Under the pieces are notes generated by a model. It was given only the letters and a program-made list of their open reading frames with translations. It was not told the DNA's origin and did no database searches. From contig NZ_JBHUPY010000007.1 in the NCBI RefSeq assembly GCF_042688385.1, forward strand, positions 258,110 to 322,109: a stretch of DNA of 64,000 nucleotides. Reading direction: 5' to 3'. Origin of the DNA: Herpetosiphon sp. NSE202 (GTDB lineage: Bacteria > Chloroflexota > Chloroflexia > Chloroflexales > Herpetosiphonaceae). Shown piece after piece: positions 699 to 63,850 of the stretch. The position numbers were made by a program, and so were the translations under genes. Position 1 is the stretch's first letter. The number at the start of each line of letters is the position of its first letter.

Positions 699-990
699 AG
701 AGTGGGGATTGGGGATCGGGGATCAGGGATTAGGGGCTATCGGACGATCAATTAGTGGAATTCGGGCAATTCGTGGCTAAAAAGAACAGAGAGCAAAGAA
801 CATAGAACAGAGAGCATAGAACATAATCCCAACAATCTGTGCCAATCTGTGGCGAAAAATAATGCTTCGCGTTTTTCGCGCCCTTCGTGGTTTTCGTCCT
901 TCGTGTCCCTTCGTGCCCTTCGTGGATCAAAAACAAACCCCCGCCACCAGAACGGTAGCGAGGGGTTCGTAAGCCATAGTAAAAACTCTT
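699..990. repeat. Mosaic intergenic repeat cluster A: G-rich gggat(c/t)(a/g)ggg words, agaacatagaac words, ccttcgtg words (the reverse orientation of ccacgaag)
   Basis: Short words are tandemly reiterated. The same word set recurs at 8 other intergenic loci in this window in both orientations. Confidence 0.8.
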
Positions 991-2047
991 AGTCAAGATA
1001 GGCTCGGAGGTGTTGTCCAACATTGGGTTGGCGCAAGTGGCGCATTGCTTCGGCCTCGATTTGGCGGGTGCGTTCGCGGGTAATGCCGAATTCAGCCCCA
1101 ACTTCTTCGAGAGTGCGGCGTTTGCCATCGGCTAAGCCATAGCGCAACTGCAAGATTTGGCGTTCGCGGTCGGGCAATTGCGAAAGCGCATCGGCCAACT
1201 CATCGTGCAACATCATGCGGGTTGCTTGCTCAAGTGGCGCTTCATCGGTATCGTCGGCCAGAAACTCGCCAACCCGACCTTGGCCTTCTTTGCCAATTGG
1301 TTGCTCGAGCGACACTGGCTGGACTGAAGCATTCAACATGCGCTTGACCTTGCGCAAACTTACGCCCAAGGCATCGGCCAACTCATCGGGAGTAGCCTCG
1401 CGTTGCAGGGCTTGTTCAAGCTGGTAGGCAACGCGGCGCATTTGCGCGATTGATTCGCTCAAGTGAACTGGCAAGCGAATGGTGCGGCTTTGTTCGGCAA
1501 TCGCCCGGGTCACTGCTTGGCGAATCCACCAAGTAGCATAGGTTGAAAAACGGTTGCCTTTGCGATAGTCGAATTTTTCGACGGCACGCATCAAGCCAAT
1601 ATTGCCTTCTTGGATCAGATCCATGAACGACATATGATTGCCGATATATTTTTTGGCGACGCTGACCACCAAGCGCAAATTGGCTTGAGTTAGCTTGCGC
1701 CGGCCTTCGTTACCATAATCGACGCGGCGTTCGAGCGCTTTGCGCTCGTCCCACGTTGCGTATTGTTCGGTTTGCAACTGGAGCTCCGCCTTGCGCCCAG
1801 TTTCAATTTGTTTGGCGAGAGTAATTTCTTCCTCGGCGGTAAGCAACTCGACCTCGCCGATTTCACGCAAATACATCTGGACTGAATCTTCGACAGCCTC
1901 GGAATAGAGCGTTTTCTTGCGGCGTAGGTTTACTATGGCTAATTCTGCGTCTTCATCATTAAAACCCGGCTCAAGCTCCCAGCCCTCAGGGGCATCTTCA
2001 AGCTCCGGTTGGTTTTTTGCTACATTCATCGTTTCATACTTTGTCAT
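989..2047 (-). CDS. rpoD: RNA polymerase sigma-70 factor RpoD/SigA
   Basis: Regions 1.2-4 are conserved (..TLYSEAVEDSVQMYLREIGEVELL.., ..FMDLIQEGNIGLMRAVEKFDYRKGNRFSTYATWWIRQAVTRAI.., ..TLEEVGAEFGITRERTRQIEAEAMRHLR..). The start is placed at MTKYETMNV (ATG at 2047); the six-frame ORF extends to 2200. Confidence 0.9.
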   Translation of the reverse strand: MTKYETMNVAKNQPELEDAPEGWELEPGFNDEDAELAIVNLRRKKTLYSEAVEDSVQMYLREIGEVELLTAEEEITLAKQIETGRKAELQLQTEQYATWDERKALERRVDYGNEGRRKLTQANLRLVVSVAKKYIGNHMSFMDLIQEGNIGLMRAVEKFDYRKGNRFSTYATWWIRQAVTRAIAEQSRTIRLPVHLSESIAQMRRVAYQLEQALQREATPDELADALGVSLRKVKRMLNASVQPVSLEQPIGKEGQGRVGEFLADDTDEAPLEQATRMMLHDELADALSQLPDRERQILQLRYGLADGKRRTLEEVGAEFGITRERTRQIEAEAMRHLRQPNVGQHLRAYLD

Positions 2048-2456
2048 CGTCCACGCTCGCTGGGCTACGCCCACTATGGCTTTCGCTGCTGGCGGCGCAC
2101 GAAAGCTATCTATTGAACCCGCAGGATTCTTTATACAATGTACTACGTTACGTCTGGTAAGCTTGGATGTTTGCTGGATTGTGACGGGCTGCTTCCACAT
2201 CCTGGATTATGTCTAAAGCAAAAACCACGCCACGAACTGTAATTCTTACAGTTACAGTATAACAAGTATAGTATAGCAAGAGATTCGTCAAGATCAATAA
2301 GCCAAAAGGGGTAGTTTATAGATGTTCAAAGTTTCTTCATAGGTTAGGAGTAAAGTGCTAGTGTACAATGGGACTATTGTATGCATTGGAGGATTTATCG
2401 AATTGTTAGGTATCAAAAAGTAACTTGAAATGAGGTCAAATAATAGTTAAAAACTA

Positions 2457-2485
2457 TTGCAAAGGGTATAGCTATCCGCTATAAT
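2457..2485 (+). promoter_or_regulatory. Near-consensus sigma-70-like promoter (TTGCAA-N17-TATAAT) on the + strand
   Basis: ttgcaa agggtatagctatccgc tataat. It lies downstream of the rpmB stop and points toward the asp23-fakA-fakB genes on the + strand. Confidence 0.3.
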
Positions 2486-2543
2486 GCGTTGCGGTCAAAA
2501 CCGAGGTTCCTTGCCGCAACGCACCTCTGCGGTGATAAAACCA

Positions 2544-2726
2544 TTAGCGATCTTTGTACATGGTGCGAATATAGCGGGTGCTAACTTTCATTCGCTTCAT
2601 TTGACCATTAACTTCAACCATAGCCCATTGGATATTTGGTTTCCATGAGCGATTGGTACGGTTTTTAGCGTGGCTCACATTGTGGCCGAAGGAGCGCTTT
2701 TTCCCCGTCATTTGGCAGACTGCCAT
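2544..2726 (-). CDS. rpmB: 50S ribosomal protein L28
   Basis: MAVCQMTGKKRSFGHNVSHAKNRTNRSWKPNIQ.. is the L28 signature. A GGAGGT RBS sits 6 nt upstream of the ATG at 2726. The six-frame ORF has a spurious N-terminal extension. Confidence 0.85.
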   Translation of the reverse strand: MAVCQMTGKKRSFGHNVSHAKNRTNRSWKPNIQWAMVEVNGQMKRMKVSTRYIRTMYKDR

Positions 2727-3018
2727 GGGCGGACCTCCGTAGTTGAGACTTAAAAAGAGCCACCCTTGGTGGCTGTACCCGCTGACTATACCATAGGACG
2801 CGCTCTGATGCAACTTTTTAAATTATGCAAGTTTTCTGGCTGAATGCCCAGCAATCAAGGCCAATTGGGCTTCAGATTGAAGCCAATTATGGCATATGCT
2901 AGCTCTTGCATAATCGAGTATCATACAGCAGTAGCGCGGTTAGTTCCGCGCTATTCTCATCAAAAAACCGACGCTCGTGAGCGCCGACCATCGAACCATC
3001 TAGTTGCGAGGACTGTTC

Positions 3019-3500
3019 GAGTGAACGAGAAAACAAGTCTCGCGAATGTGCGCCAAAACGACGCTGGACGCATCGAGGTACATTCTCGCGCCATTGCTAC
3101 TGTAGTAGCCGGAGCGGTAGTGCGGTGCTACGGCGTTGTGGGCATGGCCCCGCGCAACTTACGCGATAGTGTCGCCCATGTGTTGCGACCGGAAGATCAA
3201 TATAAAGGTATTGACGTGCAAGTCAGTGCCGAGGCAATTAACATCGATCTGTTTGTGATCATCGAGTATGGCACACGGATCGCTACTGTTGCCCGCAATA
3301 TTATGGAAACTGTTCAGTACGCGGTTGTGCATGCACTTGGCGAGGCCAATATCACGGTCAATGTGCATGTTCAGGGCCTGCGGATTGAGCAAGCAGACAA
3401 AGAACCAACAAAAGATGCAACCGAAGGCCAGCCCAGCCGCTGGCGACGTTTTGGCGTAATGGGAGGTCTGCGTGGACAGCGCACCGAAGAATCAAATTGA
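3019..3500 (+). CDS. Asp23/Gls24 family (alkaline shock protein-like)
   Basis: ..GRIEVHSRAIATVVAGAVVRCYGVVGM.. is an Asp23 core. The start is proposed at the GTG at 3019 after GAGGA; the ORF track starts at 2844. It overlaps the fakA start by 29 nt. Confidence 0.7.
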
Positions 3501-5109
3501 TGGCACCCGGCTGTTGGCAGTTTTTCGCGCAGCCGCAGCGTGGTTTAGCCAGAATGTGGCAACTGTCAACGCCCTAAATGTGTTTCCTGTGCCCGATGGC
3601 GATACAGGAACCAACATGAACCTTACGCTGACAGCGGCGCTCAAGGATGTGCAGGATGATGCCTCGGTCGCGGTCGTGGCCGAACGAGTGTATCGCGGGG
3701 CTTTGATGGGCGCTCGCGGCAACTCTGGGGTGATTCTTTCGCAAATTCTGCGCGGGCTTTCGCAGGGCATGGCCGGCCAGCAGGTTTGTACGCCCGAAAT
3801 CTTGGTTGCAGCCTTAGAACAAGCCTCAACTACTGCTTATAAAGCGGTGATCAAACCAGTCGAAGGCACAATGCTCACGGTTATTCGCGAAACCAGCGAA
3901 GCAGCCCGAGCAGGCTTTAAGCCAGAAATGAACTGGCATGAAGTGCTTGATTTAATTGTTAAAGGGGCACGGGTTTCGGTCGATAATACGCCCAACCTGA
4001 TGAAAATGTTACGCGACGCTGGCGTAGTCGATGCTGGCGGCGAAGGTTTGTATGTGCTCTTCGAGGGCGCGATGGCATTTGCCCGTGGCGAGAAGCTTGA
4101 ACAACGAGTTGCCCCAGTCGATCAAGTGGCGATGGCCTTTGACGATATTCATAGCGACGATGATTTTGGCTATTGCACCAACTTTATGATCCAAGGCGAA
4201 GATATTCCCTACGAGGATGTGCGGCGCACGATTGCCGAAATGGGTACGTCGGTGGTCGCGGTTGGCGATGAACGCTTGGTCAAGGTGCATTTGCACACCC
4301 TACGGCCTGGCGATGCACTGAATTATGCAGTGCAATGGGGCAGCCTTGGGGCAATTGAAATTACCAATATGGATAAACAGCGCAGCGATCTGCATGAAGC
4401 CAAAGCCCAACAAACTAGCCAACCAGCCCGGGTAAAACCCGATGAGCCAGTGAGCGATGTTGGCGTGGTCGCGGTTGCGCCTGGCCAAGGCTTTCGCGAG
4501 CTGTTTGAATCGTTAAATGTTGGCGAAGTGGTCACTGGCGGCCAAACCATGAATCCCTCGATTCAAGATTTGGTGACGGCAATCGAGAAATTGCCCCAGC
4601 CAGCAGTTGTGGTGTTGCCAAATAATAGCAATGTGATTTTGGCAGCACAACAAGCGCAACAATTAACCAATAAAGTTGTGCATGTAATTCCAACTAAAAC
4701 CGTGCCGCAAGGCATGGCGGCAATGTTTGCCTTTAATTATGCGGTTGGCGCTGAAGAAAATGTGCAGGCCATGAGCCGCGCAATTAAGGATATTACTACG
4801 GCGGAAATTACCACTGCCGTGCGCGATGCTACCGTAAATGATGTTGAAGTGCGCGATGGCCAAACGATTGGCTTGCTCAACGGCGCACTGGTTGAATCTG
4901 GCGATCAGCCCGACGACGTGATTGATCGCATCTTAGCCCGGATGGATTTGGACGACCATGAGATCGTTACCATCTATTATGGCGAACAATGTTCGGCGGA
5001 ACAGGCTGAAACACTAGCCCACAAAATCAACGCAACCTACCCTGCGCTTGATGTTGAGGTGCAAAACGGCGGACAACCATTTTATGATTACATTCTCTCT
5101 GCGGAGTGA
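3472..5109 (+). CDS. fakA: DAK2-domain fatty-acid kinase subunit A (FakA / YloV family)
   Basis: The N-terminal DAK2 domain reads ..VPDGDTGTNMNLTL.. and is followed by a YloV-like C-terminal domain. A GGGAGG RBS sits 5 nt before the GTG start. The genes that follow are DegV/FakB genes. Confidence 0.85.
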   Translation: MDSAPKNQIDGTRLLAVFRAAAAWFSQNVATVNALNVFPVPDGDTGTNMNLTLTAALKDVQDDASVAVVAERVYRGALMGARGNSGVILSQILRGLSQGMAGQQVCTPEILVAALEQASTTAYKAVIKPVEGTMLTVIRETSEAARAGFKPEMNWHEVLDLIVKGARVSVDNTPNLMKMLRDAGVVDAGGEGLYVLFEGAMAFARGEKLEQRVAPVDQVAMAFDDIHSDDDFGYCTNFMIQGEDIPYEDVRRTIAEMGTSVVAVGDERLVKVHLHTLRPGDALNYAVQWGSLGAIEITNMDKQRSDLHEAKAQQTSQPARVKPDEPVSDVGVVAVAPGQGFRELFESLNVGEVVTGGQTMNPSIQDLVTAIEKLPQPAVVVLPNNSNVILAAQQAQQLTNKVVHVIPTKTVPQGMAAMFAFNYAVGAEENVQAMSRAIKDITTAEITTAVRDATVNDVEVRDGQTIGLLNGALVESGDQPDDVIDRILARMDLDDHEIVTIYYGEQCSAEQAETLAHKINATYPALDVEVQNGGQPFYDYILSAE

Positions 5110-6189: not shown

Positions 6190-7023
6190 GTGGCGATTAT
6201 TGTAACCGACAGTACTGCTGATATTCCGCCTGGGTTGGCAGCAGAACACGACATTCATGTGATTCCATTAACGGTTAATTTCGATGCAGAATCGTTCTCC
6301 GATGGTGTCGAAATTACCCATGATCAATTTTATACTCGCCTCGTTGCCAGCAACAATTTGCCAACCACGTCGCAGCCCTCAGTTGGGGCCTTCGAGCAAT
6401 TGTATCGCGCAATTGGCAACGACGAGCCAATTATCTCGATTCATATTGCTGGCAAATTGAGCGGCACGATTCGCTCAGCTCAACAAGCAGCCGAATTATT
6501 GCCCGATTTTGATATTCGGGTGATTGATGTCCAAAGCACCACCATGTCGCAAGGCTGGGCAGCGCTTTTGGCAGCTCGCGCCGCCAAAGAAGGCAAATCG
6601 GCTGATGAAATTGAAGCCTTGGTGCATAGCATCGTTGAGCGCACTCGCTTGCTTGCAGCCTTGGATACCTTGCGCTACCTCGAAAAAGGTGGTCGGATTG
6701 GCAAAACCCGTGCGTTGCTGGGAACTTTGCTCAACGTCAAGCCAATTATCGACGTGCGTGATGGCGAAGTTAAACCCTTCGAGCAAGTGCGCAGCAAGAA
6801 AAAAGCTGTGGCCCGCTTGATCGAAGAAGCACGCAATATGGCTCCCTTCGAAGAATTGGCGGTACTTTATTCACGCAACGAGGAAGAAGCCCAAGAGTTT
6901 GCCCAAAGCCTCAACGAAATTTTTCCCGCCGAACGAATTGTACTGGCCGAAATTGGGGCAGTTGTGGGAACCCACATTGGGCCAGGCGCTTTAGGTTTCA
7001 CTGGCGTGCGTAAAAATAAATAG
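6190..7023 (+). CDS. DegV family fatty-acid-binding protein (FakB paralog 2)
   Basis: VAIIVTDSTADIPPGLAAEHDIHVIPLTV.. The start is GTG at 6190, directly after AAGGAGG. An alternative TTG start lies at 6160. Confidence 0.85.
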   Translation: MAIIVTDSTADIPPGLAAEHDIHVIPLTVNFDAESFSDGVEITHDQFYTRLVASNNLPTTSQPSVGAFEQLYRAIGNDEPIISIHIAGKLSGTIRSAQQAAELLPDFDIRVIDVQSTTMSQGWAALLAARAAKEGKSADEIEALVHSIVERTRLLAALDTLRYLEKGGRIGKTRALLGTLLNVKPIIDVRDGEVKPFEQVRSKKKAVARLIEEARNMAPFEELAVLYSRNEEEAQEFAQSLNEIFPAERIVLAEIGAVVGTHIGPGALGFTGVRKNK

Positions 7024-7375
7024 GCGATCAGGAATAAGGGGTCAGGGATCAGGCTTAAAAAACGCGAACTCTGGCCCCTCGCCCCTGAATTCCGCCCCCT
7101 AGCTCTGAGTTAATGATCTACGCAGGACACGAAGGCTTGAAACCACGAAGCGCGCGAAGAACGCGAAGCATTATTTTTTCGCCACAGATGAGCACAGATT
7201 GGCTTGATTATCGTTCCCAATAGCCAATAGCCAATAGCCCTGACTCCTCGCTTTTGACTTCTGATTTTTGACTTCTGATTTTTGCCTTTTGCCTTTTACT
7301 TTCACAGCTTCTATGTTCTATGTTCTTTGCTCTATGTTCTCCTTCATCCCTCATCCTTAACGACAGCGACTTAAG
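7024..7375. repeat. Mosaic intergenic repeat cluster B (gggtcagggatcagg, ccacgaag/cgcgaag words, atagccaatagcc x3, ttttgacttctga x2, ttctatgttc x3, catccctcatcc)
   Basis: Same word families as cluster A, in the opposite orientation. Confidence 0.8.
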
Positions 7376-7471
7376 TCATAGCTAGTCGTGCTATAATCGT
7401 TCTAAATAGCATAACAAGATTGCTCAATGGTGCGCGACACTCGCATCATTGTTATAGGAGCGCATAGCACC

Positions 7472-8551
7472 ATGGGCTTGTTTGGGAAACGGGCGGATGC
7501 GCCAACACAAGAGGCAGTCTTGGCTGCCCTTGCAACGGTGCAAGAGCCAGAACTCGGTGGCAACTTAGTTGCCCGCAAAATGATCAAAGAACTGACCATC
7601 GATGGCGGACGCGTCGTTGTCTTGGTCGATCTGACCACGCCAGCTTGTCCGTTCAAGGACCAGTTGGCCAACGATGTGCGCGCAGCTTTGGCCCAAGTGC
7701 CAGGCGTGAGCGAAGTCGAGGTCGATTTTACCGCTACCGTGCGGTCATACAATGGGATTCCTGATAAAGCCCGCGTGCCTGGCGTGAGCCATATTTTGGC
7801 TGTGGCTTCGGGCAAGGGCGGCGTAGGCAAATCAACAGTTGCAGTTAATCTTGCGGTCGCGTTGGCCCAAGAAGGCGCACGGGTTGGCTTGCTCGATGCC
7901 GATATTTATGGGCCAAGTGCCCCGTTGATGACTGGCGCACGCGGCAAACCAGGCATTACCGAAAACCAAAAAATTGCCCCACTCGAAGCACATGGCATTA
8001 AAGTCATTTCGGTGGGCTATTTTGTTGATGATAGCCAGCCCTTGGTTTGGCGTGGGCCGATGATTTCATCGATGTTGCGTCAATTTTTGTTCGAGGTTGA
8101 TTGGGGCCAGCTGGATTATTTGGTCGTCGATTTGCCCCCGGGCACTGGCGATATTCAATTAACCTTGGCCCAAGCGATTCCACTTTCTGGCTCAGTTGTG
8201 GTAACCACCCCGCAAGATGTAGCCCTTGCTGATGCGATTAAAGGCGTTGAGATGTTCCGCAAGTTGAATGTACCCATCTTGGGGATTGTCGAGAACATGA
8301 GCTACTTTATCGCACCTGACACTGGCAAGCGCTACGACATCTTTGGCCATGGCGGCGCACAAACCGCCAGCACCAAATTGGGTGTACCATTCTTAGGCGA
8401 AATTCCGTTGGGCATGCCAATTCGCGAAGGTGGCGACACTGGTCAACCAGCGGTTACTCAAAGCGCCAAAGATGCCTATGCAGATGCCTTCCGCGAAGTT
8501 GCACGCACACTCGCAGGCCGCATCAGTATTGAAACCATGGTGGCGGCCTAG
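7472..8551 (+). CDS. Mrp/ApbC/NBP35 family iron-sulfur cluster carrier ATPase with an N-terminal MIP18/DUF59 domain
   Basis: ..AVASGKGGVGKSTVAVNLAVALAQEGARVGLLDADIYGPS.. is a deviant Walker A. The start is placed at MGLFGKR.. (7472). Confidence 0.85.
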   Translation: MGLFGKRADAPTQEAVLAALATVQEPELGGNLVARKMIKELTIDGGRVVVLVDLTTPACPFKDQLANDVRAALAQVPGVSEVEVDFTATVRSYNGIPDKARVPGVSHILAVASGKGGVGKSTVAVNLAVALAQEGARVGLLDADIYGPSAPLMTGARGKPGITENQKIAPLEAHGIKVISVGYFVDDSQPLVWRGPMISSMLRQFLFEVDWGQLDYLVVDLPPGTGDIQLTLAQAIPLSGSVVVTTPQDVALADAIKGVEMFRKLNVPILGIVENMSYFIAPDTGKRYDIFGHGGAQTASTKLGVPFLGEIPLGMPIREGGDTGQPAVTQSAKDAYADAFREVARTLAGRISIETMVAA

Positions 8552-8625
8552 CGCCTTGCCACTGGCAACGCTTCAATGACGCATGGCTGCTGCTATGCGT
8601 CATTGTTGTCTGAAAGAGCAAGCCG

Positions 8626-9660
8626 ATGATGCCGATTGAACTACTGGAAAGCCCTCAAACCAGCCAAATTCACGCCAGCACCCCTGCCCACGATGCTCAT
8701 GGGCGGCGGATTAATTACCTGCGGATTTCACTAACCGACCGCTGTAATTTTCGCTGTTTCTACTGTATGCCTGAATGGGGCATGCAATTTGCGCCCAAAC
8801 CAGAATTGCTGACCAATGACGAGTTGATTCGTTTGGTGCGAATTATGGCCCAAACTGGCTTTGAAAAGATTCGCCTAACGGGCGGCGAACCAACTTTGCG
8901 CCGCGATTTGGTCGGGCTGGTCGAGGCAATTGCCAATACTCCAGGCATTAACGAAGTTTCGATGACCACCAATGCCTTATTGTTGGCCCCGATTGCTCAG
9001 CAATTGGCCGATGCAGGCCTCAAACGGGTCAATATCAGCATCGATTCGCTCAACCCCGAAAACTTCCGTAAAATTACGCGCGGTGGCGATTTGGCGCGGG
9101 TTTGGGCTGGCATCGAAGCCGCCGAACAGGCTGGTTTAACGCCACTCAAGCTTAATTGTGTGATCGTGCGCGGCGTGAATGATCACGAAGTGCTCGATTT
9201 GGCGCGCCTGACGATCGACAAGCCATGGCAAATGCGTTTTATCGAGGTGATGCCCTTGGTTGGCGTGGCTGATGTGGCTGATAATGGCGTAGTGCCAAGC
9301 AACGAATTAATTGGCCAGATTGAAGCCAACTTGGGCCTCGATTTCCTTGGCTGGTATGGAGCCGACCCAGCGCGCACCTATCAAATTCCTGGGGCGCAAG
9401 GCAAAATTGGCTTTATTAGCTCAATTAGCGACCCGTTTTGTGCCACCTGCAATCGAATGCGGCTGACAGCCGATGGCAAATTACACCTGTGTTTGCTGCG
9501 CGATAATGAGCTTGATCTGCGGGCAGCGCTGCGTGGCAAGAGTAGCGATGAAGAGCTAGCAGCTTTGGTGCGCCATGCAGTTTGGATCAAACCTTGGGGC
9601 CATGGCTTGCCCGAAGGGGTTAAACCGACAGTTCGAGGAATGTCAGAGCTAGGCGGGTAA
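8626..9660 (+). CDS. moaA: GTP 3',8-cyclase MoaA (radical SAM)
   Basis: ..INYLRISLTDRCNFRCFYCMPEWG.. is the CxxxCxxC radical-SAM cluster. A C-terminal Cys motif reads ..CATCNRMRLTADGKLHLC.. Confidence 0.9.
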   Translation: MMPIELLESPQTSQIHASTPAHDAHGRRINYLRISLTDRCNFRCFYCMPEWGMQFAPKPELLTNDELIRLVRIMAQTGFEKIRLTGGEPTLRRDLVGLVEAIANTPGINEVSMTTNALLLAPIAQQLADAGLKRVNISIDSLNPENFRKITRGGDLARVWAGIEAAEQAGLTPLKLNCVIVRGVNDHEVLDLARLTIDKPWQMRFIEVMPLVGVADVADNGVVPSNELIGQIEANLGLDFLGWYGADPARTYQIPGAQGKIGFISSISDPFCATCNRMRLTADGKLHLCLLRDNELDLRAALRGKSSDEELAALVRHAVWIKPWGHGLPEGVKPTVRGMSELGG

Positions 9661-9679
9661 ATCGAGCAGAAGGAACAAA

Positions 9680-10141
9680 TTGATGCCAAAGCCATTACGC
9701 ATTAGCGCCAACGAATTGCTGAGCAGCGATCAAGCAACGACCTTCGCCTATGTTTGTCGGTTTGAAAATAACCGCGAATGGTGGTTGCCAGTCACCCATA
9801 CCCAACACATCAGTGGCGAGGGCGTTGGCGCAATCTACGAGGAACACGCCAAAGTAGCGGGAATTCCGATGAAAATGCAGTTGAAGGTTTATCATTACGA
9901 GCCACCAAAGCAAATCAAATTCACCATTAGCTCAGCGTTAATGCAATCGGATATGGATTATCAGTTTGTGGTTGAGCCAGCAGGCACGCGCTTAATCATT
10001 AGCACCGCGATTGATTTTAAGTGGTTTTTACGCCCATTTGCTCCGCTGATGCGTTCTGCATTAATTAAAGAAGCGAGCCAACATTTGAGCGTACTCAAGC
10101 GGGTTTTGGCCCAAAAAACTGCCCAAGCAAGCGGCCAATAA
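9680..10141 (+). CDS. Hypothetical protein, possibly SRPBCC-like
   Basis: 153-aa ORF with good coding appearance. No strong motif was recognised. Confidence 0.45.
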   Translation: MMPKPLRISANELLSSDQATTFAYVCRFENNREWWLPVTHTQHISGEGVGAIYEEHAKVAGIPMKMQLKVYHYEPPKQIKFTISSALMQSDMDYQFVVEPAGTRLIISTAIDFKWFLRPFAPLMRSALIKEASQHLSVLKRVLAQKTAQASGQ

Positions 10142-10198
10142 GCTATTTTTTTGCTTGGGGCAGCCAAATTTTATGGTATGCTATACAAAACTTAGACG

Positions 10199-10240
10199 CT
10201 GAGGTCAACGTTGTTGCTCGGCGTTTTTTGTTGTTGAAAG
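10199..10240 (+). terminator. Rho-independent terminator-like hairpin plus T-run
   Basis: cgctgag gtcaacgttgttg ctcggcg followed by tttttt. Confidence 0.5.
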
Positions 10241-10252
10241 GATAGTGGCGCA

Positions 10253-10693
10253 ATGGCGCGTACTGATCAAACCAATGAATCGGAAGTTTTAGCAGGTAGT
10301 AGCCGGGTTTTACGCTTTGCCTATTGTGTGCTGGCAATTTCTGCTGGCGTGCGAGCCTTGTTTCAAGTTGCCACCAAATTCAATCAAGCTCCACTGGCCT
10401 ATAGCCTAACCACCATCGCCGCGTTGATTTATGGAATCGCTTTCTTGGGCTTTGGGCGACGCACCCCACAAGCGTGGCGCGTGACCATAGCGGTATGTGC
10501 GGTTGAGCTTTTGGGCGTAATTACGGTCGGCATTTTGACCTTAATCGAACGCGATTGGTTTCCCAAGGATACGGTTTGGAGCGATTTTGGGATTGGCTAT
10601 GGCTTTACGCCATTACTCTTGCCCATCGCTGGGCTGTGGTTATTGCTGCGCCAAGAAACCCGCGAAGCCTATGGAGTCGCCAATAGATCCTGA
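10253..10693 (+). CDS. Hypothetical integral membrane protein (about 4 TM)
   Basis: Hydrophobic segments throughout. No recognised family. Confidence 0.45.
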   Translation: MARTDQTNESEVLAGSSRVLRFAYCVLAISAGVRALFQVATKFNQAPLAYSLTTIAALIYGIAFLGFGRRTPQAWRVTIAVCAVELLGVITVGILTLIERDWFPKDTVWSDFGIGYGFTPLLLPIAGLWLLLRQETREAYGVANRS

Positions 10694-11478
10694 ACCGCAG
10701 CCACAACCGCAGGCCATTCGCGACTTGACGGATCGATTAATTCAAAATGATGAGCGTTTGGTAGCGCTACCAAGCGCGACTCATCACCAGCAGCCAGCGC
10801 TTGCTCAACATAGCTTTCGCTAATACCAAACGGTACTGGCCCATCATCTGTGCCATGGAGCACGATTTGGGGCACGCCTAAGGGCAATAAGGCAGCTGGA
10901 GAAGCATCATGGTAGCGTTCTGGATACTCTGCTGGCGAGCCGCCCAATAATTCTTGCACCGCTTGCTGGCTCAAACGCCGTTGATCAGCCAAGGCCAAAT
11001 CGGCGACTCCCGCCAAACTAACCACACCTTGTAAGCGCAACGGTTGGGCTTGCCAAAGCGGGCTGGTTGGGGCAAGTTTCGAGCGTGCAGCCAGCCATAA
11101 AGCTAAATGGCCACCAGCAGAATGGCCCAAGCTAATCACACGTTGGGCATCAATCGGATAGGTTTGGGCCAACTGAGGCACAAAATCGGCAGCTTGGGCA
11201 ACATCGAAAAAGGTAGTGGGCCAACCACCGCCATTGCCAATCCGCCGATACTCAATATTCCACGTCGCATAGCCAAGTGCAGTCAGGGCGGCACAAACGT
11301 GGCCAATATGCTCAAGGTCGTAGCGAGCACGCCAAAAACCACCATGGACAACGATGACCACAGGAAATGGCCCACTGCCAGCTGGCAAGCGCAAATCGCC
11401 AAATTGCAATGGATCGGCAGCATACCAAATTCGCTGATCAGCAGGCGGCGCAGCCTGAGCCAAAATCGAATCACTCAT
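10669..11478 (-). CDS. Alpha/beta hydrolase (esterase/lipase-like)
   Basis: ..VVIVVHGGFWRARYD.. is the oxyanion HGG. ..SLGHSAGGHLALW.. is the GxSxG nucleophile elbow. Confidence 0.8.
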   Translation of the reverse strand: MSDSILAQAAPPADQRIWYAADPLQFGDLRLPAGSGPFPVVIVVHGGFWRARYDLEHIGHVCAALTALGYATWNIEYRRIGNGGGWPTTFFDVAQAADFVPQLAQTYPIDAQRVISLGHSAGGHLALWLAARSKLAPTSPLWQAQPLRLQGVVSLAGVADLALADQRRLSQQAVQELLGGSPAEYPERYHDASPAALLPLGVPQIVLHGTDDGPVPFGISESYVEQALAAGDESRLVALPNAHHFELIDPSSREWPAVVAAVQDLLATP

Positions 11479-11634
11479 TGGCTATTCCTAAATGCTTAAA
11501 AATACATACTTGTTAATAAAGTTTTAAAGGCGAATAGGACTGTTGGCCTATAGTCAATTAGCGCTTAGCATAGCACGATCTACCCATTATTTCCATTTAA
11601 CTGCCATGTTTGCAGTCACGGAGGAGTGTCTGGT

Positions 11635-13374
11635 ATGTTCATTCGAAGGATGATGTTTGTTCTGCTCGTTATTTTTAGCCTGAGCACAGTTTCGGCAAAG
11701 CCGCTCGAAACGAACGCCCCTGAAGCCCAAGTTGTCGCAAGCCCAGCCGCAACCAATGCCTACAATATGCGCGCTGGCTTTCCAGCAACCAAGCCCAATG
11801 GCTCCTACTTTTCGTCGCCCACTGTGGTCGATTTGTTCAAAGATGGCTCGCCGGAAATTCTCTCCGCCGATGCAACTGGCTGTATTTGGGGCCATAACAT
11901 TTATGGCCAAGTGCTGCCTGGCTTCCCATGGATGACTGGCGGCGCATGTGCCAACACGCCACGGGTCAACGGCTCGTTAGTGGTCGCCGATATTAACCAA
12001 GATGGTTTGCTAGAAATTGTGGTTGGGACGCGCGGCAAAGGTACTGCTGTCGGCCAACGCGGCAAAGTGATCGTCTATCAACGCAACGGCGCAATCCTGA
12101 GCGGCTGGCCCAAAGAGATGGATTGGGCCTATATTACCAATGGCAATTTCCCCGAAGTCGTGCATGTGGCAGCTGCTGATATTGTTGGCGATGGCAAACT
12201 TGAGGTGATTGCAACCACGACCAACGAAGCTGGCAGCAATACCAATTTTGCGCCAAATGTCTATGCTTGGTCTTCGAACGGAACCATCCTCAATGGCTAT
12301 CCACGCAGCGCCGACAAAGGCTCGGGCATTTGGGGCCACCCAGCCTTGGCCGACATCGATAATAATGGCCATTCGGAAATTTTGGTTGGCCGCGATGAAA
12401 TCTATTTCTATCGCTACAATGGTGATGGTAACCAATATCCAGGCTGGCCAATTCGCACCTATACCAATGTCAACCAAACCACCTGGAATGTCCACGATTA
12501 TCTGGAGTTTACCCGCTCTGGGCCAGCAGTCGCCGACTTAGATGGCGATGGCAGTTACGAGGTTATTGCAGCAGGCAAAGTGCGGACTCCCGACGGTTTG
12601 CCCAATAATAACTATGACCCCCAAATTGCTAGCGCGGTAATTGTGACCGAGCCAAACGGCACGCGCCGCGCAGGCTGGACTGATGCCAAACGGGCAGGCG
12701 CGCCCTTGGATGTGAACTTCACGCCAAATAACCCGATTGTCGTCGCCGATTTGGATGGCGATGGCATCAAAGAATTTGTCGTGACCTTCGACGATGGCAC
12801 GATTCGCGCCTATCGCGAAAATGGGGTTCAAATGTGGTCGTTCTTCTATGCCCAAGAGCCTGTTGCTGGCGCGCCAACCCGCAAAGTCTTTGGTAGCGAA
12901 GTCGTCATTGCCGATGTGACTGGCGATCGCAAAATAGATATTGTGTTCGGCACCTATTCATTCGATCGCGTTTATGCAGGAATTGTGGGGCTGTACGCGC
13001 TCGATGCCCGTACCGGAACTTTGCATGGCGGCTTTCCATTATCGCTGCCTAATGAAGGCCCATCGAACGATAATAGTGCTGGATCGCAAAAAGGCATTCA
13101 AGCTGCGCCAACCATCGCCGATATTGACAACAATTGTTATGTTGAGATTTTGGCCCATAGCCGAGCTGGCAATATTTATGTTTGGGAAACCCCAGGCCGT
13201 AATTTGCCCGAATTAATGCCCTGGCCAATGAGCCGCAAAGACTTGCAGCGTACCGCGTGGGTCAAAAACCCTGCGCCAGAGCCACCACGCCAACAGGTGT
13301 ATGCTCCCGAGCAACTGCAAGGTGGCGATTTCAAGGCCTATTTGCCAATTACCCGCACAGGCTGCGATTTCTAA
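11635..13374 (+). CDS. Secreted FG-GAP/VCBS-repeat beta-propeller protein
   Basis: Signal peptide MFIRRMMFVLLVIFSLSTVSA. About 7 repeats of the type (V/I)AD(L/I)(D/N)xDGxxE(I/V)(V/I). The ATG is at 11635 after GGAGG. Confidence 0.8.
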   Translation: MFIRRMMFVLLVIFSLSTVSAKPLETNAPEAQVVASPAATNAYNMRAGFPATKPNGSYFSSPTVVDLFKDGSPEILSADATGCIWGHNIYGQVLPGFPWMTGGACANTPRVNGSLVVADINQDGLLEIVVGTRGKGTAVGQRGKVIVYQRNGAILSGWPKEMDWAYITNGNFPEVVHVAAADIVGDGKLEVIATTTNEAGSNTNFAPNVYAWSSNGTILNGYPRSADKGSGIWGHPALADIDNNGHSEILVGRDEIYFYRYNGDGNQYPGWPIRTYTNVNQTTWNVHDYLEFTRSGPAVADLDGDGSYEVIAAGKVRTPDGLPNNNYDPQIASAVIVTEPNGTRRAGWTDAKRAGAPLDVNFTPNNPIVVADLDGDGIKEFVVTFDDGTIRAYRENGVQMWSFFYAQEPVAGAPTRKVFGSEVVIADVTGDRKIDIVFGTYSFDRVYAGIVGLYALDARTGTLHGGFPLSLPNEGPSNDNSAGSQKGIQAAPTIADIDNNCYVEILAHSRAGNIYVWETPGRNLPELMPWPMSRKDLQRTAWVKNPAPEPPRQQVYAPEQLQGGDFKAYLPITRTGCDF

Positions 13375-13385
13375 ATTTAGCGCCA

Positions 13386-13421
13386 GCGCAGGGATAGTCG
13401 AGCCATCCCTGCGCTTTTTTT
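13386..13421. terminator. Bidirectional rho-independent terminator between convergent genes
   Basis: agcgcaggga tagtcgagcca tccctgcgct followed by ttttttt. It sits between the FG-GAP gene (+) and the lipoprotein gene (-). Confidence 0.7.
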
Positions 13422-14133
13422 ATTGCAATGGAAGGCTGGGATCGATTTTGTAGCTTTGAACAATTCGTTGTAGGTCGGGTTGCAAGCTCTCGAATTGCTC
13501 CAAGGGAACCAAAATCTGAATCATGCTGATATACTTGCCATCGCGGCGTACATAGCCATCGCCACTCATCGCCAGCAAGCTTTGCGGATCAACGAAGCTA
13601 TAGGAAACATAGGTTGTGCCATCTGCTTGCTTGACTGGCTGATCAAGATTAAACTCCGCCGACTCACCCACGATTTGGCTAATAAAATCGTTTAAAAACT
13701 CTTCCTCGTTGGTAATTAAATTTTCGCCATCCTCAACTACCAGCAATTGAATAAAAGCTTGTTCTAAAGGATCGACCCAAAACAGCAGATTATTGCCTGC
13801 ATCAACGCTATCGCGCAGTTGCCAATCGCTTGGCACATCGATTGAAAAGGCCTTGGTTGGATTGGTGTAGGTTTGCAGCTCGTCAATTACGATAAAGGAT
13901 GTGCTATCGCCTGGCACATTCGCCAAATCGTCTGTGGTTGGGGTCAATTGCGGACGTGGGGTAAACGTCGCTGGCACGGTTGGGGTGGCCGATGGTTGCA
14001 ACAAAACTGGCTCAGCAGTGGCCGTAGCCGTGGCTGCTTGGGCAACCTGTTCGGTTGGCGGCACCGTTGTGGCCGTCGCACCACCACAGGCAACCAAGCT
14101 ACAGATTACGAGAAAATAGCCAATAAACCGCAT
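13420..14133 (-). CDS. Lipoprotein (Thr/Pro/Ala-rich linker plus globular domain), hypothetical
   Basis: MRFIGYFLVICSLVACGG has a lipobox. An AAGGAG RBS sits 6 nt upstream of the ATG at 14133. Confidence 0.65.
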   Translation of the reverse strand: MRFIGYFLVICSLVACGGATATTVPPTEQVAQAATATATAEPVLLQPSATPTVPATFTPRPQLTPTTDDLANVPGDSTSFIVIDELQTYTNPTKAFSIDVPSDWQLRDSVDAGNNLLFWVDPLEQAFIQLLVVEDGENLITNEEEFLNDFISQIVGESAEFNLDQPVKQADGTTYVSYSFVDPQSLLAMSGDGYVRRDGKYISMIQILVPLEQFESLQPDLQRIVQSYKIDPSLPLQ

Positions 14134-14195
14134 AGATACTCCTTCCGACCAACGGGGTCGGCTCAATGACGGTTTAGAGTGTACTCGATTTTGGC

Positions 14196-15035: not shown

Positions 15036-15059
15036 GGCCCTACTCCTGAATTCAAATGA

Positions 15060-15445
15060 CGCACTGCATTATATTATATCACGTTAATTTAGGGGTCAGG
15101 GATGAGGGGTCAGGCATCAGAGCAGTTACAGAAACCGCGAAGGACACGAAGATTGGAAACCACGAAGGACGCGAAGAGCGCGAAGATTAAGTTTTTAGCC
15201 ACAGATTCTTGTTCCCATAGCCTATAGCCTATAGCCTGATTCCCTCACCCCCAGCCCCCTCTCCCACTAGACGCGGGCGAGGGGTGTTTGTTTCGTGGTT
15301 CTAGTCTCAATCGTGGCGAAACTATCTTCATCCCTCATCCTTCATCCCTCATCCTTCATCCCTCATCCTTCATCCTTCATCCTTCATCCCTCATCCTTCA
15401 TCCCTCATCCTTCATCCCTCATCCTTCATCCTTCATCCCTCGCTA
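15060..15445. repeat. Mosaic intergenic repeat cluster C, including a solo MITE arm (15240-15285) and a 113-bp tandem 8-mer array catcc(c/t)t(c/t) (15328-15440)
   Basis: Words present: gggtcaggg, cgaaggacacgaag, atagcctatagcctatagcc and ccctcacccccagccccctctcccactagacgcgggcgagggg, followed by about 14 tandem copies of tcatccct/tcatcctt. Confidence 0.8.
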
Positions 15446-59599: not shown

Positions 59600-60000
59600 A
59601 AAGAACATAGAGCATAGAGCGAAAGGATGAAGGATGAGGGATGAATTATGAAGTTTAACGCAGAGGCGCAGAGAAGTTGTGGCTCTAGGCTATGTGTATT
59701 GGTACATGAGGTTAACCACCGCCTGATCCCCTCACCCCAACCCCTCGCCCGTCCGACGGGCGAGGGGCTTTAACGCCGTGGTTCTTGCGCAATACGTCAG
59801 TAAAAACCAGTGCTCCCCTCGCCCGCGTTCAGTGGGAGAGGGGCTGGGGTGAGGGCATGGATGTCATTGCCAATCCAATGAACCATTACATAGAGCCTAT
59901 AGCCTCACTTCGCGTCCTTCGCGATCTTCGCGGTTTCAGAATCGCCCATCCTAGAGCCTAGAGCCTAGAGCCTCACTTCGTGTCCTTCGTGGATCATATT
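59600..60000. repeat. Mosaic intergenic repeat cluster H including a MITE-like palindrome (59726-59856)
   Basis: gaacatagagcatagagc, ggatgaaggatgagggatgaa, ttaacgcagaggcgcagag, the palindrome cccctcaccccaacccctcgcccgtccgacgggcgagggg .. cccctcgcccgcgttcagtgggagaggggctggggtgaggg, aatgaaccattaca, tagagcc x3, cttcgcg/cttcgtg words. Confidence 0.8.
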
Positions 60001-62677: not shown

Positions 62678-63366
62678 GGTTCACACTTCAAGCGATAGCC
62701 AAACCCACGCACCGTCTGAATTGGGTCGGCACTAGGATCAAGTTGGTTGATTTTAGCACGTAAGCGTTGCACACATACATCAACAATTCGCGAATCGCCC
62801 AAAAAATTGGTGCCCCAAACGGTTTGCAACAAGGCCAAACGACCCCAAACATGGCTCGGCTGACGCATTAATTGCAATAAAACGCCACTTTCTTTGGGAG
62901 TTAATTCAAGCAATTGTTCATCCCACCATGCGCGCTGCAATTCGCAATCAAAGCGTAATTTGCCGCATTCCAATGCGCCAAGCGTTTCGCGTTGATGTTG
63001 AGCCAAGCGCAAAATTGCTCGTACTCGCGCCAATAATTCAACGGGCGCAAACGGCTTGGTCAGATAATCATCAGCGCCAACCGTCAGGCCTTCAACCCGA
63101 TCATGCAATTCATCACGGGCCGAAAGCATCAAAATTGGCACATATTGACTGCTCTGACGAATTTGGCGACAGAGTTCAAAGCCATCACCATCGGGCAACA
63201 TTAAATCGAGAATCACCAAGCTTGGGGGATTAAATGCCTGCAATTGGGCCCGCGCCTGAGCCACACTTGCAGCCTGAGCAATCTCATAACCTGCTTGCTC
63301 CAACAGGGTGCTCACCCCACTTAAAATTGCTGGATCATCATCGACAATCAGGATGCGACCACTCAT
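62674..63366 (-). CDS. OmpR/PhoB family response regulator
   Basis: MSGRILIVDDDPAILSG..LVILDLMLPDGDGFEL.. is the receiver domain. The C-terminal winged helix reads ..LRRLRAKI..VRGFGYRL.. Confidence 0.85.
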   Translation of the reverse strand: MSGRILIVDDDPAILSGVSTLLEQAGYEIAQAASVAQARAQLQAFNPPSLVILDLMLPDGDGFELCRQIRQSSQYVPILMLSARDELHDRVEGLTVGADDYLTKPFAPVELLARVRAILRLAQHQRETLGALECGKLRFDCELQRAWWDEQLLELTPKESGVLLQLMRQPSHVWGRLALLQTVWGTNFLGDSRIVDVCVQRLRAKINQLDPSADPIQTVRGFGYRLKCEP

Positions 63367-63446
63367 AGCCCAAAACCTCCAAACTGTTGCATAGGGCTAT
63401 TTTAGCCATAAAAGCGCACTCTCAGCAGCGCATCAGCGCTTTATCA

Positions 63447-63465
63447 GCCAATTGTTACCTAATTG
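63447..63465. promoter_or_regulatory. Direct repeat TTGTTAC-N4-TTGTTAC (11-bp periodicity), a candidate OmpR-family binding site about 80 bp upstream of the response-regulator start
   Basis: aattgttacctaattgttaca. The 7 plus 4 spacing is typical of PhoB/OmpR-type boxes. Confidence 0.35.
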
Positions 63466-63562
63466 TTACACAAGGGTGCTAGGCAGCTGCGTAGGAAGTT
63501 GCTACAATAATTAGTGAGGGGTGCGAACTAGTGTGTGGAAGTGATATGTGGTGGTTGATCGG

Positions 63563-63586
63563 GTAGCATTGCTACCCTTTTTTAAT
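63563..63586 (+). terminator. Hairpin gggtagc attg ctaccc followed by tttttt, a candidate intrinsic terminator on the + strand
   Basis: Read directly. It follows a candidate promoter (TAGGCA-N17-TACAAT, 63474-63508). Confidence 0.4.
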
Positions 63587-63589
63587 TTA

Positions 63590-63850
63590 ATCCACGAAGG
63601 ATACGAACCTGAGAAACCGCGAAGAGCGCGAAGGTCGCGAAATTTTCTCATTCCCTCGTCCGTACATTGCATCCTTCATTCCTCATCCTTCATATTTTTG
63701 AAGCTCTGCGCCTCTGCATTAAATGCGTACTCTATTTTGCTTTTTGACTTTTGATTTCTGCCTTTTCACTTTTAAAAAGGGATCAGGCTTGATGGAATAC
63801 ATCCTCCAAAGCCTAATCCCTTTTGCTTTTTGATTTCTGACTTTTGACCT
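63590..63850. repeat. Mosaic intergenic repeat cluster I
   Basis: ccacgaaggatacgaa, cgcgaag x3, catccttcattcctcatccttcat, ctctgcgcctctgcattaaa, ttttgacttttgatttctgcc, gggatcagg, ttttgatttctgacttttgacc. Confidence 0.8.

Follow-up and report, generated by a model that had tools for sequence, protein, structure and literature searches.

Intergenic repeat clusters of Herpetosiphon combine a polar composite unit, heptamer arrays and a GC-rich palindromic element

A stretch of 64,000 nucleotides from Herpetosiphon sp. NSE202 (contig NZ_JBHUPY010000007.1, positions 258,110 to 322,109), referred to below as the window, contains nine intergenic clusters of short repeated words, C1 to C9. The analysis confirms that the nine clusters are a real repeat family. 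Rather than one free mosaic, they comprise three kinds of element, namely a polar composite unit some 140 nt long, separate heptamer arrays, and a GC-rich palindromic element. We regard the clusters as non-coding, non-autonomous repeat DNA, selfish or neutral rather than a device of the host, and give this reading a probability of about 0.55.

Repeated sequence was scored as 16-mers present at least twice in the window on either strand. Over the whole window such 16-mers occur at nt 790–905, 7160–7358, 15170–15441, 21929–22060, 29904–29953, 42855–42994, 43632–43943, 59623–59973 and 63618–63757, and at a few small sites elsewhere. A sequence-only reading had placed nine clusters in these regions; all were found, and the repeated 16-mers are almost confined to them. 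Pairs of clusters have up to 35 12-mers in common, in both orientations, and each cluster has just 0–6 in common with the remaining 95% of the window. The nine clusters total 3,246 bp, or 5.1% of the window, which is 51% G+C. Tandem Repeats Finder (TRF) detects arrays of the previously listed words with periods of 7, 8 and 9 at every cluster but C4 and C5 (20 rows at period 7, 16 at period 9, up to 16 copies), and 26 further Herpetosiphon loci are dominated by period 7 (126 rows) and period 9 (82 rows). Instances of repeated 11-mers number 6,806, compared with about 1,900 in shuffles. Head-to-tail iteration is longer than chance and the arrays are mostly intergenic, as is required of heptanucleotide long simple sequence repeats.

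The shared 12-mers, the TRF arrays and the word densities given below bear out the description of a modular intergenic family with locally reiterated words and clusters in both orientations. One common vocabulary had been assigned to all nine clusters; this needs correcting on two points. C4 (nt 21926–22064) and C5 (nt 29829–29954) contain the GC-rich palindromic element only, without word arrays, and aatgaaccattaca is not an independent word; it is the outer inverted repeat of that element. The clusters contain no open reading frames (ORFs) of their own, and no tRNA gene was found in the window. The family occurs across the genus, in five Herpetosiphon species or strains, including the finished H. 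aurantiacus DSM 785 genome and four other Herpetosiphon assemblies. A literature search yielded no paper linking Herpetosiphon with simple sequence repeats, and twelve word strings of the family matched only unrelated primers in full-text literature.

The words were tokenised in the window and the 26 other Herpetosiphon loci, about 297 kb, which gave 73 clusters in 27 loci. The composite unit runs from CRCGAAG 9-mers through TTTTAGCCACAGATTnCACAGATT and ATAGCC 7-mers to CTCTGCGCCTCTGCGTTAAA. Module B comprises (GAT)C-CACGAAG and (GAAA)C-CRCGAAG 9-mers and may be followed by module K, TTTTAGC-CACGAAT repeats, which is optional between B and C. Module C is TTTTTAGC-CACAGATT-n-CACAGATT; a conserved linker, about TTGTTTGATTATGTTCC, leads from it to module D, the ATAGCC-type heptamers, and module E is the 20-mer CTCTGCGCCTCTGCGTTAAA. 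Separate heptamer arrays are formed by modules A (GGGGATY), F (TTTTGAC), G (TTCTATG) and H (CATCCYT). Words of the family include (CACGAAGGA)n, TTTTAGCCACAGATTCCACAGATT, (AATAGCC)n, CTCTGCGCCTCTGCGTTAAA and (CATCCYT)n.

The order of the modules is nearly one-way. B precedes C in 15:0 cases, C precedes D in 19:1, and D precedes E in 24:1; E precedes B in 14:0, which corresponds to head-to-tail units of about 140 nt, for instance in locus L080. The F, G and H arrays usually come after the composite unit, with F before H in 14:4 cases and G before H in 11:4, and module A is found more frequently ahead of B than after it (6:3). B, C, D and E all point the same way. This strong polarity is at odds with the combinatorial architecture proposed earlier.

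Each cassette begins with a T-run leader, followed by a 7-mer word repeated two to five times, head to tail, at a period of 7–9 nt. Unrelated loci in the five species or strains have the linker TTGTTTGATTATGTTCC and the leader TTTTTAGCC in conserved form. Because leaders and linkers are non-repetitive and yet conserved at unrelated loci, the copies are homologous and not independent products of slippage. Higher-order periods, a 14-mer repeated eight times at 96% and a 21-mer repeated twice at 95%, indicate recent local duplication; they fit slippage, in agreement with the suggestion that the clusters are slippage hotspots. The similarity of C cassettes is 0.26 within species and 0.24 between species.

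On neither strand do the arrays or the composite unit form more stable folds than dinucleotide shuffles (z about -1.0 to +2.0; single values 0.0, 0.07, 1.05, 0.45, -0.41 and -1.02), and the CATCCYT array has a minimum free energy of 0. Folding of whole clusters into giant hairpins, in which GAAGG of module B would pair with CCTTC of module H, was rejected at z -1.2 and +1.2.

A lack of enrichment between genes had been named as a result that would count against the family; the words are 2.4–37 times denser outside ORFs than inside. The clusters had also been placed precisely at convergent or divergent gene boundaries. This does not hold: three lie in convergent, two in divergent and four in co-directional spacers, and in the 297 kb of Herpetosiphon DNA the modules follow the background of spacer types, with no convergent or divergent excess. 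The clusters are the longest of the approximately 32 spacers of at least 60 nt in the window, about two thirds of which have no arrays, and the repeats start just past the conserved promoter-proximal parts of the spacers. Relative to the genes in co-directional spacers, modules on the coding and non-coding strands number 5:6, 5:12, 9:15, 7:6, 5:8, 4:2 and 7:6, showing no bias. A promoter-like role of the GTTAAA end of module E was rejected on its distribution between gene starts and ends, 15:19 in Herpetosiphon and 35:39 in other phyla. Promoter or terminator function of the arrays was rejected as well, consensus scans giving no excess over shuffles and no notable matches inside arrays.

Hairpins with T-runs resembling intrinsic terminators adjoin C1 (nt 938–966, minus strand), C4 (nt 21885–21914, plus strand) and C5 (nt 29832–29865, minus strand). 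At C1, the T-run of the terminator of gene 989–2200(-) continues directly into the leader of the first cassette, TTTTTGATCCACGAAG. The C5 hairpin is of the arm type and is followed by TTTTT on the minus strand, just downstream of gene 29980–32493(-); it is terminator-like, and thus some palindrome arms probably act as terminators. Transcript insulation or mRNA stabilisation, the roles suggested previously, find no backing in the absence of strand bias relative to genes and in the ordinary intrinsic terminators beside the clusters. When 1,999 ORF segments (120 aa or longer) from 116 loci were clustered all against all, no protein family recurred in company with the arrays. Rfam gave no family match in the window at gathering or E≤5 thresholds, aside from a weak Clostridiales-2 match (E 4.5, nt 25525–25620). 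With neither an Rfam match nor a recurrent neighbouring protein family, the clusters do not appear to be fragments of a known insertion sequence.

The GC-rich palindromic element is 100–200 nt long and is composed of two inverted arms, CCCTCACCCC..CCCCTCTCCC..GCGGGCGAGGGG, and a conserved spacer, in copies aligned by eye. Full copies carry outer inverted repeats, TGTAATGGTTCATT...AATGAACCATTACA; the outer repeats TGTACTGGTTCATT/AATGAACCATTACA at nt 43696–43864 recur at C8 and in L118, L060 and L018. Forty arm motifs were counted in 31 loci. [quoted passage not shown] Its flanks read ...AGC|TGTA...TACA|CAT.., so a TA duplication is possible, indistinguishable from the inverted repeat itself. 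Folding as single-stranded DNA (ssDNA) is strong (z -3.8 to -6.6). The C8 copy is 82–84% identical to copies in H. giganteus and H. llansteffanensis. A GTAG tag is absent from seven copies, and CGTC is present only in loops (GCGTCTAGTGGG), not at the end. The sequence GGGGTGAG, found in every outer arm, fits GGGGWSAS, a short and degenerate motif. In about 330 kb of Herpetosiphon DNA, the only ORF bracketed by palindromic arms on both sides encodes a 628-aa ABC transporter according to Pfam, and no gene for a REP-associated tyrosine transposase (RAYT) or a terminal inverted repeat-associated tyrosine transposase (TIRYT) was found.

A search of a plasmid collection gave two weak partial matches to the clusters only. 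A plasmid of Pseudanabaena galeata (NZ_CP112875.1, nt 181553–181647) matches the GC-rich core of C7 with 75% identity over 103 nt; accordingly, elements of the GGGGTGAGGG type may occur in cyanobacteria too. A further element of about 90 nt at window nt 25525–25620, with a pair of GC hairpins (ccctccgccggaggg and gggggttttcatccccc), shows 96.5% identity to nt 2660–2746 of H. giganteus L013, an unrelated locus where it lies between word arrays, and weaker copies are found in L097, L095, L022 and L006. We take it for a small RNA or a further dispersed repeat; Rfam offers just the weak match to Clostridiales-2.

Syntenic loci were compared in H. llansteffanensis (L117), H. aurantiacus DSM 785 (L118) and uncultured relatives (L127 and L128). 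Across orthologous spacers the arrays occupy a constant site, with differing words or orientation. In the C7 spacer, between genes for 164-aa and 289/290-aa proteins, NSE202 and H. llansteffanensis agree at more than 90% over the promoter-proximal 127 and approximately 70 columns. No alignment is possible in the middle; both spacers start with GATCCACGAAG and end in TTTTGAC arrays, the modules between differ, and the palindromic element is present in NSE202 only. The same pattern is seen at C6 with H. llansteffanensis. At C3, NSE202 and H. aurantiacus both open with GGGRTCA after the conserved upstream region of a patatin gene and then diverge wholly. At C8, the NSE202 spacer has reversed G and H modules, and L127, with an M20 peptidase 96% identical, has a forward CACGAAG cassette 20 nt past the stop codon.

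The short-read contig of L127 stops in this CACGAAG array, 47 nt past the M20 peptidase stop codon (L127 nt 11132–11178). The arrays thus break metagenome assemblies, and their abundance in metagenome-assembled genomes (MAGs) is probably underestimated. Locus L126, too, runs out before or inside the clusters. Metagenome contig L122, of the same strain as DSM 785, has identical arrays, showing that change is not rapid at the strain level. Over three clusters the two differ in one place only, by an indel of 7 nt (CGGAGTG) in the middle loop of one palindromic element (L118 nt 16425–16431).

Synteny with H. aurantiacus spans window nt 7364–15102, ending exactly at C2 and C3, and synteny with L128 ends at C8. 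Three of the four synteny break points thus fall on clusters, which fill about one sixth of the spacers; this is suggestive only. Within the syntenic part, H. aurantiacus has an extra 427-aa gene without Pfam match between the MoaA-like and polyketide-cyclase-like genes (L118 nt 6511–8050). The gene is absent from NSE202 (window nt 9661–9683), and there are no repeats at the junction.

The family had been called genus-specific. It is present in five Herpetosiphon species or strains, yet the claim fails for modules A, B, C and E, since the E 20-mer and the CACAGAT and CACGAAG cassettes occur in many phyla and (GGGGATT)n is a Nostoc/Anabaena heptamer. A scan for CTCTGCGCCTCTGCRTTAAA, with one genome per species, found the module E 20-mer in at least 116 stretches from at least 15 phyla, where about 2 are expected by chance. 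Among the matches listed are four Herpetosiphon species and other Chloroflexota; Verrucomicrobiota, Kiritimatiellia, Lentisphaerota, Planctomycetota and Chlamydiota; Acidobacteriota, Nitrospinota, Thermodesulfobacteriota, Poribacteria, Armatimonadota, Ignavibacteria, Deferribacteres and Marinimicrobia; and a Polaromonas MAG and a contig labelled Lachnospira hominis. Some of the matching contigs are of megabase size, and one is a closed chromosome. Carriage by phages was rejected, viral contigs holding only 3 copies. In the loci of other phyla, 72 of the 98 module E copies lie outside ORFs, which cover 84% of the DNA, and Rfam gave no match in 20 such loci.

The arrays of other phyla share a layout: a T-run, 2–4 nt, a C, and then a C-R-C-R-R-A-K word at a period of 8–9 nt. 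The words include CACAGAT, CACGAAG, CGCAAAG, CACAGAG, CACGGAT and CGCCAAG, and the leader-plus-word layout is identical for different words in genomes of the Planctomycetes-Verrucomicrobia-Chlamydiae (PVC) group, Acidobacteriota and Chloroflexota. PVC cassettes are chained by the linker GGGGCnTTGCTCGGG-TTTTTT...TTTTTGGGGG. Heptamers D, F, G and H are absent from the 591 kb of other-phyla loci, a small sample, and may be specific to the family. An inverted partner 40–220 nt away accompanies 26 of the 82 E arrays elsewhere and 0 of the 46 in Herpetosiphon. Examples of CRCRRAK-type cassette words are CGCAGAG, CACGAAG, CACAGAT, CGCAAAG, CACAGAG and CGCCAAG, repeated two to five times at a period of 8–9 nt and often ending in GTTAAA. 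Conceivably, though we rather doubt it, T-run-led CRCRRAK cassettes form a pan-bacterial intergenic class that is made, copied or bound by one conserved trans-acting system, the Herpetosiphon unit being a lineage-specific chaining of them.

In Verrucomicrobia and Kiritimatiellia a composite of about 250 nt is present (L103 nt 3470–3700; L008 nt 4200–4420; L105 nt 7380–7720, minus strand). It contains a CACAGAT cassette, a CGCAGAG cassette, TTTTTGGGGG linkers, the hairpin ATTGCGACCACnCAGTGGTCGCAAT and a conserved tail. Its CACAGAT cassette opens with a perfect DnaA-box 9-mer, TTATCCACA, which is probably a coincidence. A DnaA-box explanation of TTATCCACAGAT in the PVC copies was rejected, as the other words do not fit.

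Several known repeat systems resemble the clusters in part. Mazel et al. reportedly described, in 1990, the short tandemly repeated repetitive (STRR) sequences CCCCA(A/G)T, TTGGTCA and CAACAGT in heterocystous cyanobacteria. Elhai et al. are said to have described in 2008 the small dispersed repeats (SDRs) SDR1–8 of Nostoc punctiforme, which are 21–27 nt long, have no transposase and are associated with heptamer arrays; they reportedly inferred SDR mobility by comparing orthologous sites. Identity with cyanobacterial STRR or SDR was rejected on the genome scan for module E and on further grounds: the protein encoded at nt 44001–44894 is 100% identical to one of Herpetosiphon sp. NSE202, which places the host in the Chloroflexota, only (GGGGATT)n at nt 703–735 is the complement of CCCCAAT, and the other words differ. 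Judging by citing papers (PMC5861425, PMC3116915), the clusters are like SDRs in having very short dispersed units of about 20–27 nt without transposase; PMC5861425 places no SDR outside the Nostocaceae. Unlike SDRs, the Herpetosiphon units have other sequences, are internally iterated and are chained in polar order.

Long simple sequence repeats with units of 5–11 nt were treated by Mrazek, Guo and Shah in 2007; as PMC4679880 and PMC4692102 sum up that work, it is the heptanucleotide class that exceeds expectation most strongly in many bacteria, polymerase slippage being put forward as the cause. Xanthomonas has heptamer arrays of GGGAATC, and Nostoc/Anabaena has arrays of GGGGAYT (PMC4692102), and Chloroflexus aurantiacus has (GATAGRA)n satellites (PMC6749651). 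Like long simple sequence repeats, the present arrays consist of head-to-tail heptamers, mostly intergenic and on both strands, and vary in length and sequence between related species at the same gene pairs; (GGGGATT)n at nt 703–735 is exactly the Anabaena heptamer (PMC4692102). Isolated single-motif arrays differ from the clusters, in which a dozen words of 7, 8 and 9 nt are set in a fixed polar order with conserved linkers, in a dispersed unit of about 140 nt. TAACTGA arrays are common to Beggiatoaceae, Cyanobacteria and Bacteroidetes with "no mechanism evident", and Microcystis mixes heptamers (PMC4679880). As in STRR or mixed heptamer arrays, a spacer here holds several heptamers, one heptamer is common to distant phyla, and no proposed function has been demonstrated. 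The usual place of TAACTGA arrays is directly upstream of a start codon, on the coding strand; the Herpetosiphon arrays have no bias of strand or position.

Repetitive extragenic palindromic (REP) units are imperfect palindromes of 20–40 nt able to fold into a stem-loop, and in mosaics they alternate in orientation with fixed linker motifs between them. They are tagged GTAG or CGTC and tied to RAYT transposases, and other Y1 transposase genes are flanked by inverted repeats sharing GGGGWSAS (PMC3733652). Like REP sequences, their bacterial interspersed mosaic elements (BIMEs) and their hairpin-forming doublets (REPINs), as described in PMC2817692, PMC3116915 and PMC3733652, the clusters are extragenic, high in copy number and mosaic. 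The likeness to BIME/REP drawn earlier is kept for the palindromic element, whose two inverted stem-loop units recall a REPIN. It is lost for the word arrays, which are non-palindromic, run head to tail instead of alternating and fold no better than shuffles, and the palindrome has no GTAG or CGTC tag at its end. The fit of its arm GGGGTGAG to TIRYT-associated GGGGWSAS repeats is a lead, not a test. The palindromic element is MITE-like in its size of 100–200 nt, the lack of an ORF, terminal inverted repeats, many copies across species and strong hairpin potential. Unlike MITEs, it has an ambiguous target-site duplication and no autonomous partner was found; the composite word unit has no inverted ends.

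For the reading of the clusters as selfish or neutral repeat DNA, the data show their anatomy and polarity, the restriction to spacers, arrays devoid of structure and strand bias, and turnover from one species to another. That slippage and ectopic copying are the mechanisms, and that the host has no function for the repeats, we infer. Polar units of about 140 nt, plain heptamer arrays and palindromes would pile up in the dispensable part of spacers. Arrays may lengthen and shorten by replication slippage or unequal exchange, and whole modules may be swapped by ectopic recombination, gene conversion or a putative copying enzyme acting in trans. The REPIN/MITE-like double palindrome would insert into arrays. 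Long spacers, synteny break points, short-read assembly gaps and the use of some palindrome arms as intrinsic terminators would be side effects.

Several points weigh against this reading. The vocabulary is kept across species although positions are not, and pure neutral decay with slippage would not keep it. The presence of module E in at least 15 phyla, with a recurring layout, suggests that a conserved factor acts in trans or that horizontal spread took place; the search for a source of the shared vocabulary found neither. The analysis turned up no transposase, no target-site duplication and no insertion polymorphism whose boundaries were exact, so that mobility is inferred only. Most of the Herpetosiphon loci had been selected for containing module E, by which counts are biased and order and orientation are not, and the gene calls come from a greedy ORF heuristic.

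The maintenance of the vocabulary across species and phyla leaves room for two other readings. The arrays might be platforms at the DNA level, their words being sites of one or more trans-acting DNA-binding proteins, for example nucleoid-associated or architectural ones. Iterated words would recruit the protein cooperatively and organise the nucleoid or insulate supercoiling domains, with selection on words and not on positions. The conservation of words over five Herpetosiphon species or strains, and of some across phyla, despite positional turnover, agrees with this, as does their 7–9 bp period in double-stranded DNA that is always intergenic and without strand bias, as predicted for action on DNA rather than RNA; REP and BIME elements, too, are reported to bind several proteins (PMC2817692). 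We nevertheless consider it doubtful, because no candidate protein or family recurring beside arrays was found, the assignment of words to spacers is not conserved, two thirds or so of the spacers do without arrays, and many words would demand many proteins. The cassettes might instead be written or moved by a putative widespread enzyme system, a relative of Y1/HUH transposases or a reverse-transcriptase-like copier. Its recognition of the T-run leader and CRCRRAK words would account for the vocabulary shared by many phyla: the exact 20-mer far in excess of chance, the same leader-plus-word layout for different words, the intergenic position elsewhere, and the outer arm fitting the GGGGWSAS of Y1-flanking repeats (PMC3733652). 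We hold this to be unlikely. No such enzyme, recurrent neighbour gene, target duplication or excision product was seen, higher-order organisation differs between Herpetosiphon and other phyla in the inverted pairs, viral contigs have few copies, and a 20-mer of low complexity, built by doubling an 8-mer, speaks less strongly for homology than a complex sequence would.

Two further explanations fit less well than selfish or neutral repeat DNA. A REP/BIME-like role at the RNA level, as terminators, read-through insulators or 3′-end stabilisers at operon boundaries, could draw on the very stable hairpins of the palindrome, the C5 hairpin with its TTTTT and the three convergent clusters. It is very unlikely, given that the word arrays, which make up most of the cluster content, have no structure beyond shuffles on either strand, that modules show no orientation bias to flanking genes, that two clusters lie between divergent genes, where no transcript ends, and that canonical intrinsic terminators (e.g. 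nt 21885–21914) adjoin the clusters while the terminator scan gave no excess. The MITE-like terminal inverted repeats could also be taken as a sign that the clusters arose by decay from a single known insertion sequence or transposon, of which they would be fragments. Such debris, or an assembly artefact, is hardly credible for a family without ORFs, Rfam family or more than weak partial plasmid matches, whose arrays run head to tail unlike an insertion sequence and which is present in the finished DSM 785 genome and four other Herpetosiphon assemblies.

The anatomy of each cluster is given in Table 1. The H array of C3 is the largest of the window, with 16 CATCCYT copies (nt 15326–15438) arranged as eight 14-mers of 96% identity.

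Table 1. Elements of the nine clusters, with positions in the window
Cluster	Element	Position (nt)	Strand	Basis
C1	Module A, GGGGATT/GGGGATC heptamers	703–735	+	TRF period 7, 4.7 copies
C1	Module K, CACGAAT-type cassette, minus strand TTTTTAGCCACGAATTGCCCGAATT	759–784	-	sequence, runs
C1	Reversed G, AGAACAT/AGAGCAT	783–825	-	TRF period 7 x6.1; period 21 x2.0 at 95%
C1	Module C cassette, minus strand TTTTTCGCCACAGATTGGCACAGATTG	833–859	-	sequence, runs
C1	Reversed B, CTTCGYG 9-mers; minus-strand start TTTTTGATCCACGAAG	865–934	-	TRF period 9
C2	Module A, GGGRTCA heptamers	7026–7053	+	TRF, sequence
C2	Module B, CACGAAG/CGCGAAG 9-mers with TTGAAAC leader	7126–7168	+	sequence
C2	Module C TTTTTTCGCCACAGATGAGCACAGATTGG and conserved linker cttgattatcgttcc	7173–7216	+	sequence
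C2	Module D, CCAATAG x3.3	7217–7239	+	TRF, 100% matches
C2	Module F, TTTTGAC/TTCTGAT/TTTTGCC	7251–7302	+	TRF period 7 x7.6; period 14 at 95%
C2	Module G TTCTATG x4.6, then H CATCCCT CATCCTT	7309–7358	+	TRF, sequence
C3	GGGGTCA/GGGATGA heptamers (A mixed with reversed H)	15092–15120	+	sequence
C3	Composite unit: B x5, C (TTTTTAGCCACAGATT), D (ATAGCCT x3)	15133–15237	+	sequence
C3	Single arm of palindromic element (CCCTCACCCCCAGCCCCCTCTCCCACTAGACGCGGGCGAGGGG)	15242–15284	+	sequence
C3	Module H array	15326–15441	+	TRF period 14, 8.1 copies, 96% matches, score 212
C4	Whole palindromic element: inverted pair of GC-rich arms with conserved spacer	21929–22060	.	ssDNA fold -37.1 kcal/mol, z -4.6
C5	Arm-derived hairpin (29832–29865) and one palindromic arm (29904–29953)	29832–29953	.	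fold z -5.0
C6	Reversed H, ATGAAGG/ATGAGGG	42808–42838	-	TRF, sequence
C6	Reversed C (atctgtggctaaaaa) and degenerate reversed B (cttctttgtgcacttcatgg)	42855–42893	-	sequence
C6	Reversed A, CCTGACC/CCTGATC, then H CATCCCTCATCCTTCAT	42924–42994	.	TRF, sequence
C7	Modules B/K (GATCCACGAAG... x6), then D CCAATAG x2	43610–43695	+	TRF period 9, 6.7 copies
C7	MITE-like element, outer repeats TGTACTGGTTCATT...AATGAACCATTACA, within CCAATAG array	43696–43864	.	core fold z -3.8
C7	D (GCCAATA x2.4), E (CTCTGCGCCTCTGCGTTAAA, 43893–43912), F (TTTTGAC x4.4)	43869–43944	+	TRF, sequence
C8	Reversed G AGAGCAT, H AAGGATG, E TTTAACGCAGAGGCGCAGAG (59654–59673), D GGCTCTAGGCTATG	59602–59694	-	TRF, sequence
C8	MITE-like element, core 59729–59855; outer repeat AATGAACCATTACA at 59877–59890	59695–59890	.	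fold -42.5 kcal/mol, z -6.6
C8	D TAGAGCC/TATAGCC; reversed B CTTCGCG x2.8; D-type CCTAGAG x3.4; reversed B CTTCGTG x2	59891–59992	.	TRF, sequence
C9	Module B (ATCCACGAAG..., AAACCGCGAAG x3)	63590–63642	+	TRF, sequence
C9	H CATCCTT-type, then E variant CTCTGCGCCTCTGCATTAAA (63704–63723)	63670–63723	+	TRF, sequence
C9	Two F arrays, TTTTGAC/TTTTGCT-type, 63734–63773 and 63820–63857	63734–63857	+	TRF, sequence

Two repeats in the window lie within genes. A direct repeat of about 45 nt at nt 44145–44223 (ccagcctgtggccaagccaattgcgc..cacctgttaatcaa, two copies) is inside ORF 44001–44894, which encodes a hypothetical protein with a coding tandem repeat that is only 65% identical in H. llansteffanensis. 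GGC/GGT-rich repeats with periods of 9, 21 and 30 at nt 38248–38332 are at the 5′ end of the IF2 gene and correspond to a glycine-rich N-terminal region.

The finding belongs among the intergenic short-repeat mosaics, in which the cassette vocabulary shared across phyla is a real puzzle. The clusters occupy about 5% of the window, approximately one per 7 kb, far above the share of REP sequences in enterobacteria. The host is a filamentous predator, and little work has been done on the architecture of its genome. Short-read assemblies break at the arrays, which also coincide with break points of synteny and can pass for ORFs. Heptamer arrays came to light in 1990 and have been listed in catalogues since 2007, yet lack a mechanism. 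The polar grammar of the cassettes, together with the same words and layout in at least 15 phyla, provides concrete handles on that mechanism.

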